Of a stretch of DNA of 46,061 nt, positions 1,171 to 43,295 are shown in pieces. Position 1 is the first letter of the stretch; every line of letters starts with the position of its first letter. Location: contig CAYWYT010000001.1 in the NCBI GenBank assembly GCA_964462665.1, forward strand, positions 1 through 46,061. Reading direction: 5' to 3'. The DNA is from an uncultured Woeseiaceae bacterium. GTDB lineage: Bacteria; Pseudomonadota; Gammaproteobacteria; Steroidobacterales; Woeseiaceae. Made by a program: the position numbers and the translations under genes. Under the pieces are notes generated by a model. That model was given only the letters and a program-made list of their open reading frames with translations, searched no databases and was not told where the DNA came from.

Positions 1171-1260
1171 CTGTACTGAAAAAGGCAAACCTGTCGAAAG
1201 GCAGGGACGCAAAGCGACCGGTCTACGGGTTTTACCTAAGACAGCGGAGCCACCAGATGC
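1171..1260 (+). promoter_or_regulatory. c-di-GMP-I (GEMM-I) riboswitch aptamer
   Basis: AAGGCAAACC(1183-1191)-UGUC-GAAA-GGCAGG-GACGCAAAGC(1206-1215)GACCGGUCU...AGACAGCGGAGCCACC. The first hairpin is CCUGUC/GGCAGG capped by a GAAA tetraloop (1190-1205). The second is CCGGUCU/AGAC-AG-CGG (1217-1246). The layout is colinear with V. cholerae Vc2 as I recall it (GGGCAAACCAUUCGAAAGAGUGGGACGCAAAGCCUCCGG...GUAGCGGGGUUACC). It lies 147 nt upstream of ATG 1407. Confidence 0.8.
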
Positions 1261-2173: not shown

Positions 2174-4021
2174 ATGGATCGACGAGCACACTCGGTTTCA
2201 CTCATTCTGTTAATGGTGGCGCCGGTGACGTACGCACAGTCGGACTGCCCCGGTGGCGAGCTGTGGGAGCCATACACTCAAGTCTGTGCCGAAGTGCGTG
2301 ATCTTCGTAGCGCCTTTCCGCTCAGTAAAGTAACCGTTGCTGGCAAACCCGACACGGATCTGCCTGTACCGGGTTCGATGGCGGTCGGTACGGCATACAG
2401 TCCCAACCAGCTTGTCGCCCTCGAAAGCGGCCGCCTGCACACTAAGATGTTCGTCTATCCAAACGGTGTTAGTCCTGATGGTCCATTGCCAATCTTCTAT
2501 ACGACAGCAACATCGCGCGTAAATAGAGGCTTGGAACTGCTCGTGGCCTACTCGGACGCGCGCCCGGATATCAGTCGCCTCAATCTGTATGCCTGGACCT
2601 GCCTGCCAGACTATCCGTGCCCGGATGGCGAGACAGACCCAGGCTGGCAATGGGCCAGGAACCTGACAGAGCTGACCTGCAACATCACACAGGTCGTGGA
2701 CCAGGGCGGGCATGCACACAAGCAGCTCTATTACGCCAATCACACAGACAAACTCGATACCGGTTCACCCCCGCAGTGGAAGAGCGCCATATACCTTTGG
2801 AATTATTGCGATTCGGCTTGGGATCTTGCATGGCAACACACCTACCGACAGGACAAAGTCGATTGCTCGATACCGGGCGCCGGCTGTGCTTGGTGGGGAC
2901 CAAGCATCGAAATCTTCGGCAACGAACCGTATCCGCAGATTGCGGAACTGGGCTACGAGGAATCATTGCTCTATCACGATGGCGTATGGAGCCAGTTGCG
3001 GCCCAATGAGGCGGGGTTCCGTGATCCGGCGCGGTGGGCTACGACGACCCCGTGGCAGCTTTTTCATCTGGATCCGAACCGAAGCTACGGCGTGGGCAAC
3101 TTCCTCAATGAAAATGACGCACCGGTCATCGAGGGGCAAATGGTGCTCGAGACCCAGGAGGACGAGCCGTTGGACATCGAAACCGACAGCCTCGTAATCA
3201 GTGACCCAGACATCAATCCCGCGTATCACGTCGCCTTCGAATTGGCGTTGTATGCGGGCAACGACTATACGATCACAAACCGAACTCTGACACCGGCTGC
3301 CGATTTCGCAGGAACCCTAACAGTGCCGGTTACTGTCAACGACGGCGGAGCAAACAGTGAGGTTTTCAACCTAAGGATTGAAATCACTCCGGTCAATGAC
3401 GCACCCGTCATTGTTGGCCAGAATCCAGTCGAAGTGACGGAACGAACGCCGCTCGAAATCGTTTTGGCGGATCTAATTGTCGAGGACATCGACTCGGATG
3501 TCGGAGTACTGTCGATCGCCGTTCAGAACGGCGATGGTTATGAAATATCGGGCAACACGGTCACGCCGGAATTAGGTGTCATTGGCGATATTATGGTCGG
3601 TGTTACGGCAAGCGACTACGAACTGGAAAGTGCCCCCTTCGCTTTGCTCGTTACCGTAACGCCTGACGTTATAGCGCCCGTACTGACACTGCAAGGTAGC
3701 GAAACTGTGACAGTGGGGTTTGGAAGCGACTACCTGGACGCCGGGGCAACTGCGGTGGACAACGTGGATGGCAACATTTCAGACCGAATCGTTGTCGACT
3801 CCCCAGTCGATACTAGCCGCGCCGGATCTTACGCGGTCTCTTACACGGTCGCCGATCTCGCCGGGAACAGCGCTTCGATTACTCGCACAGTTGTCGTCAA
3901 AGCTGCGGTTATTGTGCCTCGAAGTAATGGTGGCGGCAGCATGTCGCTCCTGTTTGTGTTTGGGTTACTACTGTTCGGACGCCGTATTCGACGGAGAGGA
4001 ACTGGAAATCGCGCCAACTAG
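2174..4021 (+). CDS. secreted surface protein: novel Cys/Trp-rich N-domain, two cadherin-like NDAPV repeats, an Ig-like (DUF5011/HYR-like) domain and a GlyGly-CTERM-type sorting tail
   Basis: Signal peptide (..APVTYA/QSD). NENDAPVIEGQ and TPVNDAPVIVGQ repeats. DVIAPVLTLQGSETVTVGFGSDYLDAGATAVDNVDGNISD..AGSYAVSYTVADLAGNSA is the Ig-like domain. The C-terminus is NGGGSMSLLFVFGLLLFGRRIRRR (nt 3926-3997). Confidence 0.85.
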   Translation: MDRRAHSVSLILLMVAPVTYAQSDCPGGELWEPYTQVCAEVRDLRSAFPLSKVTVAGKPDTDLPVPGSMAVGTAYSPNQLVALESGRLHTKMFVYPNGVSPDGPLPIFYTTATSRVNRGLELLVAYSDARPDISRLNLYAWTCLPDYPCPDGETDPGWQWARNLTELTCNITQVVDQGGHAHKQLYYANHTDKLDTGSPPQWKSAIYLWNYCDSAWDLAWQHTYRQDKVDCSIPGAGCAWWGPSIEIFGNEPYPQIAELGYEESLLYHDGVWSQLRPNEAGFRDPARWATTTPWQLFHLDPNRSYGVGNFLNENDAPVIEGQMVLETQEDEPLDIETDSLVISDPDINPAYHVAFELALYAGNDYTITNRTLTPAADFAGTLTVPVTVNDGGANSEVFNLRIEITPVNDAPVIVGQNPVEVTERTPLEIVLADLIVEDIDSDVGVLSIAVQNGDGYEISGNTVTPELGVIGDIMVGVTASDYELESAPFALLVTVTPDVIAPVLTLQGSETVTVGFGSDYLDAGATAVDNVDGNISDRIVVDSPVDTSRAGSYAVSYTVADLAGNSASITRTVVVKAAVIVPRSNGGGSMSLLFVFGLLLFGRRIRRRGTGNRAN

Positions 4022-7618: not shown

Positions 7619-8770
7619 ATGAATCGAATATTACATATTACATGCGACTTTCGTGACGCGATTCGTCAAGACAAAACTGCCGCCGTTTCTCGGCTCATTA
7701 ACGAGACATCACAGTTTTCTCATACCGTACTGTCGCTAAATCGAACGATGAATCCTTTTAAGCACCAATCACGCCATTCAAGTAACGGCGTTCACTCGCT
7801 CTATTATTTCGGACTGCCCTTCGGCATATGTCTTCGGGCGTCATTGCAACTGGCCGCCCGTCGAATATTACGATACATAGAACAAAACGATCTTGGCGCC
7901 GATGTTATTCACTGTCACAAACTGACCTTTGAAGGCGTCATTGGGCGAGCTCTTTCACAGAAATTGCGAGTACCCTACGTACTGAGTTTTCGAGGCGATA
8001 CCGATTTCAAGTTACTGCGATTCAAGCCGACGTATGCCGGCCTGTATCGCGTCGTTCTTCGGGAATCGATGGCCGTTTTCTTTATTGCGCCGTGGTCAAT
8101 GCGAAAGTTAACTAAAATGTGGCCCGACGTTCTGCCCGAACGGAAAGTCCTCTTGCCCAATATTGTCGATCACGCAAAACCGGAAAATTCTGACCAACTT
8201 GTCACGCCAAACCACCTCGTTACTGTATTTCATCTCAAGGATTACCGAAGAAAGAATCTTAAACGGCTCTTTCTAGCCGTTGATCTACTCAACACGGAGG
8301 GAACAGGCGTTACGCTGGACGTCATCGGTGGTGGATCAACATCGACTATCTCCACAATCGAAAAGATGATAGCTGCATTGCAGTTTTCACAGAACATTCG
8401 ATTGCTTGGACACTTATCGAACCGAGAAGTCTCAGCGCGACTACCCAGTTATGCTGGTCTGGTACTGCCAAGTTCTCGCGAGACGTTCGGAATGGTCTAT
8501 CTTGAGGCACTTCAAGCCGGTATCCCATTCCTCCACAGTGAAAATGCGGGTGTCGATGGTTATTTCGACGATTTGGGCGTGTCTGTTTCCGTCGATCCGA
8601 AGTCGGCGCAGTCGATCGCAAATGGCATCCTTCAACTACTCAATGATCAATCTCAAATGCGATATAGCATAAAACAGCTTCACGAATCGGGTGGTTTTGA
8701 TCAGTTTAACACTGAGAATATTGTGCGAACCTATTCCGAAACGCTCGCGTCAGTACTGTCGGGCAGATGA
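7619..8770 (+). CDS. GT4-family glycosyltransferase
   Basis: GLVLPSSRETFGMVYLEALQAGIPFLHSENAGVDGYF carries the E-x7-E motif of retaining GT4 enzymes. Confidence 0.8.
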   Translation: MNRILHITCDFRDAIRQDKTAAVSRLINETSQFSHTVLSLNRTMNPFKHQSRHSSNGVHSLYYFGLPFGICLRASLQLAARRILRYIEQNDLGADVIHCHKLTFEGVIGRALSQKLRVPYVLSFRGDTDFKLLRFKPTYAGLYRVVLRESMAVFFIAPWSMRKLTKMWPDVLPERKVLLPNIVDHAKPENSDQLVTPNHLVTVFHLKDYRRKNLKRLFLAVDLLNTEGTGVTLDVIGGGSTSTISTIEKMIAALQFSQNIRLLGHLSNREVSARLPSYAGLVLPSSRETFGMVYLEALQAGIPFLHSENAGVDGYFDDLGVSVSVDPKSAQSIANGILQLLNDQSQMRYSIKQLHESGGFDQFNTENIVRTYSETLASVLSGR

Positions 8771-8774
8771 CACT

Positions 8775-10799
8775 GTGTTAAGCAGAATCAGACATAGATT
8801 ACGGGTACTTCGATATTTCCTGTCGCGGGGCAGCGATTACCACATTCGTTTCGTGCGGTATCGCTTCGCCAATTTATTGCAAAAATTCATTCGACGCGAC
8901 TACTCAGTAGACGTTTTGCCGAACGGCAGCTTTACTCCATCAACATTCTTTTTTGACCCCGACGATTTGAGCATGATCACTCGTCGGGCGACGCACGACA
9001 CCAAACGAACGACGATTACTGCTGCCAATCAATTATGCGAATTGCGCTTCACCTTTCGCGGCTCTGCGACTGTGCAATTCGAGGACTGTATCGACTGGGG
9101 GCTGGAGCCGGATGGCGTTACTGATTGGCGCTGGGATCTAAACAGACATGCGTGGTTCGAGACGCTAGGCTATGCGTGGCACTATAGCCACGAGGCCAAG
9201 TATGCAAAGGCCTTCGAATCCTCGCTATTGCATTGGCTACAAAACAATCCTGTCAGTCCGGAAATGCCGAACTGGTCGGCGCCATTCGAGGTCGCGTATC
9301 GAGTTAACAGCTGGACCTGGGCTTGGTTTCTGTTTCATGATTGCGAAGAAATCGCTGCTGAAACTTCCGATGTCCTACTGCGCGCGATAGGCGAGCACTG
9401 TAGTTACCTCGATGCCAATCTCGAAGTGCATGCTCGAAACAATCACCTTCTTTTGGAAGCCAAGGCCTTGCTCTTCGCAGCGATCGCGTTTCCGCAGTTT
9501 TCGGACGCGAAGCTTTGGAAACAACGGGCCGAACGCCTCCTTTTCGACGAAGTTCGGCAGCAGGTTTTAGAGGACGGCGTCCATGCTGAAATGTCCACAC
9601 ATTATCACCGTGTTATTGCGGGGGAGCTTCTCGAGCTTTTCATATTGTTACAAAGGAACGGAATAGCCATACCGACGGATGTCGAGCAGCGAATTCGTCT
9701 GATGGCTGAATTTGAACAGAACATTGTGCGTCCGGACGGACACCTTCCATTGTTTGGCGATTCGTCGCAGAACGACACCTACGCACGATTTCCTGCTGCC
9801 GCCGCAGCTCCTTATTGTTTTGCATCGGCTGACAATAATGCATCGGGCACGGTGCCCGAACTCGAGGAAGCCATCTTATGGCGCTTGCCACATGCAAAGC
9901 GCAGTGACTGCATTGTCCGTCCTGCTCAAAGTAAAGCTTTTCCTCTCGGCGGGTACTACATCATGCGAAATCAGGAGTCGGGTGAGCAAGCCAAGTACAT
10001 GGCGATCGATTGTGGCCCGTTTGGATTGCCTATCGATCCACACCACGGTCACGCAGACGCATTGTCTTTCGAATTGTACGCACTCGGCCGACCATGGCTT
10101 GTCGACTGCGGAGTATATTCCACGCACACGGACTGGGAGTGGCGCCAATATTTCCGTGGCACACGATCGCACAATACTGTGATGGTAGATGGCTTGGATC
10201 AGAGTCACCTCATTGATAGTCGACGAGCAGATTCTCTCGCCAAAGCGCGTTGCATTGAATGGAGCGCTACGCCTGATTCCGATGTGCAGCGATTCTCGGG
10301 CCGTCATGACGGCTACGCGCGACTTCCGAATTCAGTCATACATCGCCGCATGATTTGGTTCGTTCGAGACAGCTTCTGGGTGATCACAGATGTATTGGAG
10401 GGTACTGGCACGCATTCATTAGAACTGAATCTTCACAGCTTGCCGGACGTCGAAATAAAGGTAGTCGGTGACGGTGCCGCTATTCTCTCAGATGACACCC
10501 GTCGCCTGGTCATTGCCTTCGCCTCCAACACGGACTTGCAAGCAACAGTATTAAGTGGCGCGCTGGATCCTGTTCAGGGTTGGTATTCCGGCAATTCCGG
10601 CTCAAAGACCGCCGCACCAGCACTATGCCTCGCGGCTAATTCCTCCATGCCGGCAATCCTCTGCACGGTTATTGTCCCTGACGCAAACGGCACCCTTCGA
10701 CCGGCCGACATTCAAATAGAAATATCCGAAGAACAAAATGATACCGGCAGTGAAATTGCAGTTCGGGTCGGATCGCATCAAATCATGATGTCATTATAG
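8775..10799 (+). CDS. heparinase II/III-like (alginate-lyase-fold) protein with no signal peptide
   Basis: WDLNRHAWFETLGYAW.., NWSAPFEVAYRVNSWTWAW, NNHLLLEAKALLFAA, DGVHAEMSTHYH, PDGHLPLFGDS and HGHADALSFELY..GRPWLVDCG..YFRGTRSHNTVMVDG are typical of Hepar_II_III_N plus Hepar_II_III. The track ORF starts at 8691, overlapping the upstream gene by 80 nt. GTG 8775 (5 nt after the TGA) is my preferred start, but it is uncertain. Confidence 0.75.
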   Translation: MLSRIRHRLRVLRYFLSRGSDYHIRFVRYRFANLLQKFIRRDYSVDVLPNGSFTPSTFFFDPDDLSMITRRATHDTKRTTITAANQLCELRFTFRGSATVQFEDCIDWGLEPDGVTDWRWDLNRHAWFETLGYAWHYSHEAKYAKAFESSLLHWLQNNPVSPEMPNWSAPFEVAYRVNSWTWAWFLFHDCEEIAAETSDVLLRAIGEHCSYLDANLEVHARNNHLLLEAKALLFAAIAFPQFSDAKLWKQRAERLLFDEVRQQVLEDGVHAEMSTHYHRVIAGELLELFILLQRNGIAIPTDVEQRIRLMAEFEQNIVRPDGHLPLFGDSSQNDTYARFPAAAAAPYCFASADNNASGTVPELEEAILWRLPHAKRSDCIVRPAQSKAFPLGGYYIMRNQESGEQAKYMAIDCGPFGLPIDPHHGHADALSFELYALGRPWLVDCGVYSTHTDWEWRQYFRGTRSHNTVMVDGLDQSHLIDSRRADSLAKARCIEWSATPDSDVQRFSGRHDGYARLPNSVIHRRMIWFVRDSFWVITDVLEGTGTHSLELNLHSLPDVEIKVVGDGAAILSDDTRRLVIAFASNTDLQATVLSGALDPVQGWYSGNSGSKTAAPALCLAANSSMPAILCTVIVPDANGTLRPADIQIEISEEQNDTGSEIAVRVGSHQIMMSL

Positions 10800-37226: not shown

Positions 37227-38243
37227 TTGCTCACCGAGACACCTGTCGAGTGCTCGGCCGTACTGGAATGGTCCCGGCAAAATCCGTACCATTCATTACC
37301 CTGTCGTTTTACAAGTGATATCGTGACAATCAACCCTCTCCGTCTGCTCTTGCGCAGCTCTTATTACCAGCGTCGGGTGCTCGCCCCTCAGATTGCAGGA
37401 TCCGATGATCTCGGGCGGGCCGTTAGTATCATCAGTTCTCGCTGGCCTGAGACAGTAAAGGACCGGGAATGCGAAGATTCGCCTATCTTTCTCTTCTCCG
37501 CCGGATGGGGATCAGGCTCCACACTCATACAACGGTTGATATCCTCCGATAAGAACACGTTGATCTGGGGCGAACCACATGATCACGGAATTGCAATACA
37601 CCGTTTAGCTGAAATGCTAGTTCCCGTGAATGATAAGTGGCCGCTCAATAACTATTTTCAACTGCCTGACAACTCGAAGCCAATTCAGGAGCAGTGGATC
37701 GCAAATTTTTCGCCGCCTGTTGTCGCACTACAAGCGGCGCACAGAAGTTTTCTCCAACGCTGGCTTCGTGATCCAGCATCTTCGTCTGGACGAAACCGAT
37801 GGGGAATAAAGGAAGTCCGGCTAACTGCCGATCACGCACGGTACCTGAAGTGGCTATTCCCGCGCGCCAAATTTATTTTCCTATATCGTGACGTGCTTGA
37901 CTCATACCGCTCATGCAAAGACGTCAAATGGCTAAGTGTCTGGCCGGATTACCCGGTAGGTAAGCCGACGGCTTTTGCGCATCATTGGAAGCACCTACTG
38001 CAGGGATTCATCAAACACGCCGATGAGCTCAACGCGTTGCTAATTCGATATGAAGACTTCGTGTCTGGAAAGACCGCACCTGGTCTGATCGCCGACCATC
38101 TGGACCTTCCAACAATGGATGAATCAGCTATCAAGGTCAGAGTCGGCGCACGCGCCAAGCGAAACAAGAGCTTAACTTACATCGAGACTGCGGTAATACG
38201 AGCGATCACGGATGACCTTCGGTCAAAACTGGACTATTGCTAG
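37227..38243 (+). CDS. sulfotransferase (divergent PSB loop)
   Basis: FLFSAGWGSGSTLIQRL (PSB-like, lacking the usual basic residue), RWGIKEVR.. and KFIFLYRDVLDSYRS (3'-PB). TTG start in the track, so the start is uncertain. Confidence 0.65.
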   Translation: MLTETPVECSAVLEWSRQNPYHSLPCRFTSDIVTINPLRLLLRSSYYQRRVLAPQIAGSDDLGRAVSIISSRWPETVKDRECEDSPIFLFSAGWGSGSTLIQRLISSDKNTLIWGEPHDHGIAIHRLAEMLVPVNDKWPLNNYFQLPDNSKPIQEQWIANFSPPVVALQAAHRSFLQRWLRDPASSSGRNRWGIKEVRLTADHARYLKWLFPRAKFIFLYRDVLDSYRSCKDVKWLSVWPDYPVGKPTAFAHHWKHLLQGFIKHADELNALLIRYEDFVSGKTAPGLIADHLDLPTMDESAIKVRVGARAKRNKSLTYIETAVIRAITDDLRSKLDYC

Positions 38244-39662: not shown

Positions 39663-40712
39663 CTAGTCGGAAAAGTCTTGTGTTGGAATCGGCATTGCGG
39701 AATCGACTGAATAAGCAGAAACCCCAAAAATTTCAAGTACACGATGGACATCATCTTGCTGTTGTTCGCTCAGGTAAGATTGCCACGAAAGCACGAGCTT
39801 CTCGGCGGACGCCTTTTGCCCCATCTGATAGCTTGCCTGTTGCGACGGGCGCTCTAGAGTCTGCTCGTCCGGCACATTCGACAACTGCAACGCAGTCACC
39901 AAGTTATCCCAGGCGCCTTCTTGTCGTGTCACCAGGTTTTCATAGAATGCGAGATGAGGATCATGACCCGAACGCTCCAGATGGGGCACATTCTCGATGC
40001 ACCAAATCGCAGTATGAACCTCTGCCATAGACTTCAAATCGGCCAATTGTGGCGCAACGCTGGCGAGATAGTCCTGTACTAGCTTGGGCTGGTCAAGATA
40101 TCGATCGAGCAGTTGCCGAATTGAGCGCTTATTCCATTCCTGTCCTGAACGTCTGCACACGGATGCCAGGACAGCGCAAGGATGTCGCACGATAATTGCT
40201 GAGCGGTAGCCATACTCTCTTTGCATCCAGCGGGCCAGGAGATTAGCCCGTATGAATTTGATGACTCTCGGCAAACCCACCTGACGACGATATATTAACC
40301 ATCGACGGTAAGTCCGTCGGTATTGTACAGCCGTATCCTTTATACCTCTTTTCGTAAGAATCGTCCGGGGGTGCGGAAACAAGCGGTCCGGGCGCGTGCG
40401 TAGTCCGGGCCACAAACCCGCGTTTGTTCCTTCGATGATGCCATCAAGAAACACTCGCAATTCCGCGCAAGTTTCTTCAGCACGCACATAACGATTCGCG
40501 AATTCGTACGCACCGCGAACCGCCTGCGGATGTAGTGGTTCGAATACCGTACCAAGACCGTTTGATTCAGCGATAGCGTCCTGGACCCACGTCGTACCGC
40601 TTCGTCCGGAACCAAAGACAAATACCTGCCGGGTTTTCGAAGCTGCCAACGGAGGTTCAGGTGCTGTATTCAGGAATTTTTGCAAATCAGATCTACAGGT
40701 CTCGCTGACCAA
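39663..40712 (-). CDS. sulfotransferase
   Basis: VFVFGSGRSGTTWVQDAI (5'-PSB) and AIIVRHPCAVLASV (3'-PB-like). Confidence 0.75.
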   Translation of the reverse strand: MVSETCRSDLQKFLNTAPEPPLAASKTRQVFVFGSGRSGTTWVQDAIAESNGLGTVFEPLHPQAVRGAYEFANRYVRAEETCAELRVFLDGIIEGTNAGLWPGLRTRPDRLFPHPRTILTKRGIKDTAVQYRRTYRRWLIYRRQVGLPRVIKFIRANLLARWMQREYGYRSAIIVRHPCAVLASVCRRSGQEWNKRSIRQLLDRYLDQPKLVQDYLASVAPQLADLKSMAEVHTAIWCIENVPHLERSGHDPHLAFYENLVTRQEGAWDNLVTALQLSNVPDEQTLERPSQQASYQMGQKASAEKLVLSWQSYLSEQQQDDVHRVLEIFGVSAYSVDSAMPIPTQDFSD

Positions 40713-42512: not shown

Positions 42513-43295
42513 TTGAATAAACCACTCATATACATCGGCGCCATACGTCGATCGGGCTCGACGATGTTGTGTGAGGCACTGACTCAGCTGCCTCATTCAC
42601 TGGTATTTAACGAACCGAATATCGCTTCTGACCAGTTCGTCATTCGCCCCCATGAAGCCGCGCTACTACGCAGTATCGATATCGAGCTTGACGATTTCGT
42701 GCGTCGCTGGTCGATGTTCGGCCGTCGATTTCTGTTTCGCGGTGTGAGGACTAAGCTGTTTCCGCAAATCGCCCGCGACATCAGCCAAATCGGCATCAAG
42801 GAAATATTTCATGCAAACTGGCGGCGAATCGAAGCCGCATTTCCGGATCTCCGGATTGTGCTCACCGCCCGCGACCCGCGTGACATATACCTGTCACTCA
42901 AGAACCGTTACGAAGCGGGCACAGCGATTTGGGATGGAGTATTCTCACCTGAGCGAGTGGCCGAGTCCCTGAATGAGGAGTTTGGCTACCAGAAGCAGAT
43001 GCAAGACACACATAGCGTGCTCCAGGTTCGCTATGAAGATTTGTGTCTCGATTCGGCGATTCTGACGAGCGTGCTCGATTTCGTCGGCAGTGAAATCCAT
43101 GAAGTCGGGCGACTTGGTGGTTTTCTGGAATCTGACAGCAAGCGTATTGAAGAAAGCGAGCTGCATGGCGGAAAAATTACAGACAAAAGGGTCGCTCGGT
43201 GGCGATTCGAACCCGATAAAGGCAGAGTTCGTCAAGCGCATCGAGTCTACGAATTGATGCCGGAATACTGTGATTTTTGGGGCTACACTGAATAG
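42513..43295 (+). CDS. sulfotransferase
   Basis: IGAIRRSGSTMLCEAL (5'-PSB) and RIVLTARDPRDIYLSL (3'-PB RDPRD...S). TTG start in the track. Confidence 0.75.
   Translation: MNKPLIYIGAIRRSGSTMLCEALTQLPHSLVFNEPNIASDQFVIRPHEAALLRSIDIELDDFVRRWSMFGRRFLFRGVRTKLFPQIARDISQIGIKEIFHANWRRIEAAFPDLRIVLTARDPRDIYLSLKNRYEAGTAIWDGVFSPERVAESLNEEFGYQKQMQDTHSVLQVRYEDLCLDSAILTSVLDFVGSEIHEVGRLGGFLESDSKRIEESELHGGKITDKRVARWRFEPDKGRVRQAHRVYELMPEYCDFWGYTE

Follow-up and report, generated by a model that had tools for sequence, protein, structure and literature searches.

Vc2, the c-di-GMP-I (GEMM-I) riboswitch in the tfoY leader of Vibrio cholerae (RF01051), contacts its ligand through G20, A47, and C92, with G20 and A47 spaced 27 nt apart (PMC4744006, PMC11218506), and a tetraloop together with its receptor is typical of the c-di-GMP-I class (PMC11218506). 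A preprint reports Vc2 as an OFF switch (bioRxiv 10.1101/617340). Bc2 of Bacillus thuringiensis precedes the collagen adhesion protein gene cap, and Bc1 has an expression platform of ~220 nt with two intrinsic terminators (PMC11218506, PMC4933901). In Geobacter sulfurreducens, a GEMM riboswitch lies upstream of the gene for the fibronectin type III surface protein KN400_1971 (PMC13194489). Many Geobacter GEMM-I RNAs sense cGAMP via A20, according to PMC13194489, which cites Kellenberger 2015.

Here, we follow up an earlier note, made from the letters alone, on 46,061 nt of DNA from an uncultured Woeseiaceae bacterium (contig CAYWYT010000001.1; this whole stretch is referred to as the window). 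The note had placed a c-di-GMP-I riboswitch in the leader of a surface-protein operon and had likened its architecture to that of Vc2, a likeness that holds. The window aptamer shares with Vc2 the P1, the GAAA-capped P2, and the P3 with a tetraloop receptor; it has equivalents of G20, A47, C92, and the C44-G83 pair, as well as the 27-nt spacing between G20 and A47; and its predicted OFF sign is the same. It differs from Vc2 in the downstream gene and the organism, in one P3 pair that has become a G-A mismatch, in a predicted transcript start at a sigma-54 promoter, and in a platform with a 50-nt strand that complements the aptamer in four segments. Bc1 and Bc2 are likewise class I aptamers with G20, A47, and C92 equivalents and an association with surface adhesin control, but the two intrinsic terminators of Bc1 have no detectable counterpart in the window platform. 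The KN400_1971 riboswitch is also a GEMM-I aptamer before the gene of an FN3-domain surface protein, yet it comes from a different phylum, and the likeness is one of domain content. The cGAMP-sensing Geobacter RNAs have A20, whereas the window has G at this position.

Aptamer, downstream genes, and related loci

Screening the whole 46,061-base window on both strands with cmscan against 4227 Rfam families returned a single match, at 1175-1258 on the + strand (70.3 bits, E 9.1e-15, full model length). The top model was RF03167 'c-di-GMP-I-GGC', whose gathering score of 59 was exceeded, and a further member of the c-di-GMP-I clan CL00126 also reached at least its own gathering score at 1175-1258; this second member is presumably RF01051 (gathering score 35). 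The riboswitch call of the earlier note was therefore borne out, with RF03167 and not RF01051 as the best model. The string that it had quoted is present at 1182-1253: AAGGCAAACC-TGTC-GAAA-GGCAGG-GACGCAAAGC-GACCGGTCT reads from 1182, and AGACAGCGGAGCCACC ends at 1253. A permissive Rfam rescan of 600-1500 gave nothing credible beyond the aptamer, which has the following features:

1172-1261, + strand: c-di-GMP-I aptamer (Rfam match 1175-1258; RNAalifold consensus folds)
1172-1178 with 1254-1261, + strand: helix P1 (consensus folds)
1184, + strand: equivalent of Vc2 G20, which contacts one ligand guanine (base just 5' of the P2-closing GC)
1185-1186 with 1209-1210, plus hairpin 1190-1205, + strand: helix P2 (consensus folds)
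1196-1199, + strand: GAAA tetraloop capping P2 (sequence)
1211, + strand: equivalent of Vc2 A47, which intercalates between the two ligand guanines (cmscan alignment; just 3' of P2)
1213-1251, + strand: helix P3 (consensus folds)
1253, + strand: equivalent of Vc2 C92, which forms a Watson-Crick pair with the ligand (junction base preceding the P1 3' strand)

The aptamer lies in an intergenic stretch of 761 nt (646-1406), which the earlier note had given as 760 bp of non-coding DNA. Mechanically called ORFs inside it are not conserved as reading frames, because indels in the alignment with the closest genomic relative, locus L001, are not multiples of three (related loci are labelled L throughout). 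From the aptamer end at 1258 to the ATG at 1407, there is a gap of 148 nt (147 nt in the note). Two genes follow, with the Pfam domains that had been described for them:

1407-2051, + strand: gene 1, 214 aa, He_PIG (putative Ig; PF05345, 6e-8) and fibronectin type III (PF00041, 8e-6)
2174-4021, + strand: gene 2, 615 aa, Big_9, cadherin-like, and surface Ig-like domains (Pfam)

Residues G16 and C17 in the signal peptide of gene 1 hardly vary among 23 homologues, and the product is therefore a probable lipoprotein. The C-terminal tail of the gene 2 product, which reads GGGSMSLLFVFGLLLFGRRIRRRG, consists of GGGS, a hydrophobic stretch, and RRIRRR, and it scores a borderline 15.4 bits against the TIGR03501 GlyGly-CTERM model (cut-off 15.5, E 0.024). 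The genes are 122 nt apart, no terminator-like site was found between them (2052-2173), and gene 2 may be co-transcribed with gene 1.

In the genome collection, the nearest and only relative is a Woeseiaceae MAG that has the same aptamer before a gene 68% identical to gene 1. The gene 1 protein has 734 homologues at E <= 1e-5, and a metagenome scan yielded 80 loci. We used 26 of these aptamers to make a covariance model, which detected 71 aptamers in 82 sources, 70 of them on the strand of the gene; three more are cut by contig ends. The aptamer ends within ~350 nt of the start of the homologue ORF in 49 of 65 assessable loci, a count that includes the window and several near-duplicates. Gene 2 was rejected as a conserved partner, as tblastn found no homologue of it in the other 81 loci. 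Since homologues of gene 1 follow aptamers and gene 2 is without a homologue in the other loci, gene 1 is the conserved target. Of the two surface proteins that the earlier note had wired to the second messenger, the first is thus upheld as a conserved partner, and the second has no homologue after gene 1 in other loci.

The related sequences also bear on the fold. RNAalifold recovered P1, P2, and P3 from alignments of 26 and of 10 sequences, with covariation in P2 (three to five pair types per pair), so the P1/P2 fold that the earlier note had proposed to check was obtained. The P2 loop is GAAA in 44 of 68 related aptamers and another GNRA loop in most others. A tetraloop receptor can be read by eye in P3 (UACGG, 1224-1228, with CCUAAG, 1235-1240), and the equivalents of the inter-helix pair C44-G83 (C1208/G1244) are invariant in 71/71 aptamers. 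Every defining feature of c-di-GMP-I that can be assessed from sequence is present, and we regard 1172-1261 as almost certainly a c-di-GMP class I (GEMM-I) aptamer, with ligand binding as a prediction.

Several loci have two or more aptamers on the same strand (L022, L033, L044, L055, L066, L067, L068, L072, and L041/L046/L047). Adjacent copies in multi-aptamer loci are ~180-265 nt apart, and some stand after the gene 1 homologue, before further genes. A regular-expression match at 40682 in the window was considered as a second aptamer and discarded, as it has no match to the covariance model.

Leader and predicted expression platform

Upstream of the aptamer, the leader contains three further elements:

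963-978, + strand: sigma-54 type promoter TGGCATGCGCTTTGCA, -24 GG / -12 GC (consensus match, conservation)
1096-1118, + strand: leader hairpin, conserved in position and variable in sequence (terminator-like in the scan; alignment of 10 leaders)
1124-1140, + strand: conserved leader box GTGACGAACACACTCGC (core bases invariant across 10 leaders)

The motif TGGCAY-N5-TTGCW has one match in the whole window, at 963-978 (0.13 expected), ~200 nt upstream of the aptamer; transcription would then begin near 990 and yield a 5' UTR of ~415 nt. Fifteen related loci share the motif on the + strand, 5' of either the aptamer or the gene. It precedes the aptamer in L001, L005, L009, L010, L014, L015, and L075, and it stands directly 5' of the gene in L011, L018-L021, and L023, which have no riboswitch. 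Because the motif is conserved across loci, we infer that the aptamer lies within a sigma-54-dependent 5' UTR. The distance between promoter and riboswitch is either ~100-120 nt (L009, L010, L014, L015, L075) or ~205 nt (window, L001, L005), which suggests an insertion into the leader in the subclade of the window. No sigma-70-like site was found in 500-1700, and no sigma-54 activator was found in the window.

The leader box follows the hairpin at 1096-1118 and precedes the aptamer by ~35 nt in 10/10 close leaders, and it is without a pairing partner in the consensus fold. Two candidate roles were rejected: a sigma-70 promoter, as the spacing is wrong by eye and the scan has none, and pairing with the conserved CGCGUAGUG (1341-1349), which L005 breaks without compensation and which is at odds with the unpaired box of the consensus fold.

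Between the aptamer and the start codon, folds and alignments delimit the elements of a putative expression platform:

1263-1285, + strand: hairpin H1 (AUGAUGGUC-AAUC-GAC-A-CAUCAU), directly after P1 (all single-sequence and consensus folds)
1292-1342, + strand: switch (anti-aptamer) strand (RNAalifold consensus of nine leaders; folds with and without the aptamer enforced)
1370-1382, + strand: small hairpin H3 before the ribosome-binding site, differing in sequence among relatives (single-sequence folds, alignment)
1391-1409, + strand: ribosome-binding region with Shine-Dalgarno GAGGG at 1396-1400 and AUG at 1407-1409 (alignment)

The GUC/GAC core of H1 is conserved, and GAGGG is kept 6-7 nt before the ATG in relatives. 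We aligned nine close leaders from the aptamer to the start codon, and the RNAalifold consensus of these full leaders is not the aptamer but an alternative fold, where four segments of the aptamer have their partners within 1292-1342: 1292-1303 with 1249-1257, CGUCCCU.C (1308-1316) with 1201-1209, 1320-1329 with 1191-1197, and GUCUUUUUCG (1333-1342) with 1177-1186, a segment that includes the G20 equivalent. Across the nine leaders, 94.8% of the cells in the alternative fold are paired, versus 40-46% when the partners are slid by 1-3 columns, a count made on the same alignment that yielded the structure and on two strands that are both highly conserved. Three of its pairs change on both sides (e.g., A-U to G-C at 1207/1310 in L008). 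Together, these comparisons lend the alternative fold modest support from pairing, with thin covariation. Enforcing the aptamer costs 3-13 kcal/mol in stability relative to the unconstrained fold, a gap that ligand binding could cover.

When the aptamer is enforced in the fold of the window leader, UCCCUCCGAAUC (1310-1321) pairs with GAUUUGAGGGA (1391-1401), and the ribosome-binding site is predicted to be less accessible: its mean unpaired probability over positions -13 to -5 is 0.59 without the constraint and 0.20 with it. Such a drop is seen in 11 of 13 leaders and is absent in the other two (L053 and L016). As a control, the platform alone was shuffled with dinucleotides preserved, 30 times per leader, in six leaders. 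The native drop is 0.19-0.44, compared to a mean of 0.03-0.08 for shuffled platforms, and the number of shuffles out of 30 that reach the native drop is one in the window, three in L005, one in L008, one in L012, and none in L034 and L049. Duplex energies do not stand out from shuffled controls, neither between platform and ribosome-binding region (12-147 of 200 shuffles are as good) nor between aptamer and platform (z from +0.1 to -1.9). L034 and L049 come from a different branch, with platforms of unrelated sequence, yet they display the same three-strand design; in L049, the strands are GGCAAACCAAUCG in the aptamer, CGAUUGGUUUGCUC as the switch, and GGAGCAAAACCAUG in the ribosome-binding region. 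No terminator-like site was found on the + strand in 1259-1406.

A switch of the following kind would fit these folds. Without ligand, the pyrimidine-rich 1292-1342 would invade the aptamer at G20, J1/2, both P2 strands, and the 3' side of P3 and P1, so that the Shine-Dalgarno GAGGG (1396-1400) stays open. Binding of c-di-GMP would lock the aptamer, and the freed UCCCUCCGAAUC (1310-1321) would pair with GAUUUGAGGGA (1391-1401). That pairing would occlude the ribosome-binding site and shut down translation of the lipoprotein, in addition to the transcriptional control by sigma-54. We lean towards this predicted translational OFF switch at high c-di-GMP because the accessibility drop exceeds that of shuffled platforms, because the same design is seen in L034 and L049, and because there is no terminator-like site. 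Counting against the OFF sign, one would not naively expect such a response from a surface protein that neighbours a locus for matrix polysaccharide.

There is a small chance that the output lies at the RNA level instead, with the released C/U-rich strand 1292-1342 serving as a Rho loading site or altering the stability of the transcript. In its favour, the platform is a long, pyrimidine-rich stretch with a loose predicted structure when the aptamer is enforced; the 148 nt between aptamer and start codon are more than a simple Shine-Dalgarno-sequestering switch needs; and Vc2 itself is reported to act through RNA stability (bioRxiv 10.1101/617340). However, this output is countered by an accessibility drop at the ribosome-binding site that is specific to the native platform and recurs in L034 and L049 with unrelated sequence.

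The U5 tract at 1336-1340 is conserved and could indicate a mechanism based on termination. Here, the ligand-free RNA would form a long hairpin whose 3' arm, GUC followed by UUUUU (1333-1340), acts as an intrinsic terminator, and c-di-GMP binding would prevent this hairpin and allow read-through, which makes a transcriptional ON switch. GYCUUUUU is kept in eight of the nine close leaders, and a complementary A tract occurs earlier, in the aptamer, an arrangement reminiscent of terminators that have an A tract on one side and a U tract on the other. Yet the helix at the U tract has only 3 bp (GGC/GUC) and closes a loop of ~145 nt, the stable P2 hairpin would have to unfold, and the scan of the + strand that returned no terminator-like site covers this hairpin's 3' arm. 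In addition, CGCGTAGTGAA just 3' of the U tract is conserved, which a terminator would not need, and the tract is absent from L034 and L049. We consider a transcriptional ON switch quite unlikely, and the translational OFF switch remains our preferred reading.

Ligand-contacting bases and the Rfam label

The base that the earlier note had singled out as separating c-di-GMP from 3'3'-cGAMP specificity, the equivalent of Vc2 G20, is G1184. It lies 27 nt from A1211, the same spacing as in Vc2, Vc1, and Bc1. Of the related aptamers, 67 of 68 have G at the G20 position, and 71/71 have C at the C92 position.

The name of the best-scoring model raises the question of a specificity variant, either the Rfam 'GGC' class or the 3'3'-cGAMP type (GEMM-Ib). 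'GGC' we take to stand for the bases at positions 20/47/92, and an A at position 20 presumably marks 3'3'-cGAMP sensors (GEMM-Ib). In favour of a variant ligand, RF03167 is the highest-scoring Rfam model for the window aptamer, and in the close clade P3 contains an N-A mismatch and C92 is preceded by A instead of G. The cmscan alignment nonetheless sets the RF03167 consensus ACGC-G-AA and UGCC against ACGC-A-AA and CACC in the window: the consensus has G both at the A47 position and before C92, and the window has A at both. Membership of the GGC variant, in the sense of its name, fails on A1211, where the consensus has G; this position is A in all 71 relatives, including those labelled RF03167. 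Membership of the 3'3'-cGAMP type fails on G1184, as cGAMP sensors have A at this position. Many sequences with canonical bases receive the GGC label from Rfam, and the 24 riboswitch matches in 20 related loci (L002-L076) are divided between RF03167 (13) and RF01051 (11). The RF03167 label here is an artefact of model competition within the clan. The bases G1184/A1211/C1253 are canonical 'GAC', therefore neither GGC nor the A20 cGAMP type, and the predicted ligand is c-di-GMP, not 3'3'-cGAMP or a variant ligand; sensing of another ligand is very improbable. The probability that the element matches by chance, or is a decayed relic without function, is negligible given the E-value of 9e-15 and the same placement of the aptamer in dozens of diverged loci in which the flanking leader sequence has diverged.

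The 'GGC' label of Rfam thus attaches to canonical aptamers (13/24, with A47), and automated annotation would over-call the variant. The understanding of how this riboswitch class works is unchanged by the window aptamer, which is a canonical, ordinary class member. The only A at the G20 position among the 68 aptamers is in L067:4204-4294 (GAGCAAACC), the third of three aptamers in its locus, which may be of the 3'3'-cGAMP type (GEMM-Ib).

The lipoprotein family and the neighbouring polysaccharide locus

Three things make the element interesting: its sign is likely OFF, it is combined with a sigma-54 promoter, and it is broadly linked to one small lipoprotein family. The pairing of aptamer and gene 1 recurs in many sediment and soil bacteria. 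A riboswitch accompanies this small Ig/FN3 lipoprotein family in most of the environmental loci examined, often together with a sigma-54 promoter, which makes the family a candidate c-di-GMP effector in uncultured sediment Gammaproteobacteria. Tentatively, and with more doubt than we attach to the OFF sign itself, the He_PIG + FN3 lipoprotein family might be a widespread, uncharacterised target repressed by c-di-GMP, made only if c-di-GMP is low while a sigma-54 activator is active. If so, the sigma-54 promoter and the OFF riboswitch would form a two-input gate, and the place of the gene at the edge of a matrix polysaccharide locus would suggest that the lipoprotein acts before matrix production or against it (e.g., in first surface contact or dispersal).

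The earlier note had also described a matrix-polysaccharide locus next to the riboswitch, and the rest of the window agrees with this description. Its genes code for glycosyltransferases, a heparinase II/III-like protein, an amidotransferase of the asparagine-synthase type, a tyrosine autokinase, and proteins for export and chain-length determination, all with their best matches among families of the XrtA/PEP-CTERM system (TIGR03108 with 611 bits versus a cut-off of 817; also TIGR03027, TIGR03007, TIGR03018, and TIGR03013), all below their equivalog cut-offs. Wzy- and Wzx-like proteins are encoded as well. XrtA and PrsR/PrsK were not found within the window. By its gene content, the neighbourhood is a polysaccharide locus that may be of the XrtA/PEP-CTERM type, with marker families below equivalog cut-offs. 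The border of this locus gains an RNA-level regulatory annotation that ORF-based annotation misses.

Within the polysaccharide locus are two sulfotransferase-family genes (37227-38243 and 42513-43295) and the heparinase II/III-like gene (8691-10799), and its product may be a sulfated polysaccharide. At the left edge of the window, the - strand encodes, from 645 to 241, the N-terminal 134 aa of a TIGR03013/EpsB-type sugar transferase, which end at a stop at 241. Directly adjoining this fragment in a different frame is an ORF from 244 to 1 on the - strand that ends in WRFNIRMSN and by eye resembles the C terminus of a phosphomannomutase. Position 119 of the window is position 1 of the matching ENA metagenome contig, which is 54,154 bp long, and the segment 1-645 may be a truncation or an assembly chimera. 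Between 4241 and 4534 lies an isolated 97-aa ORF with an UnbV_ASPIC domain only (E 8e-12), which looks like a remnant of a larger protein.
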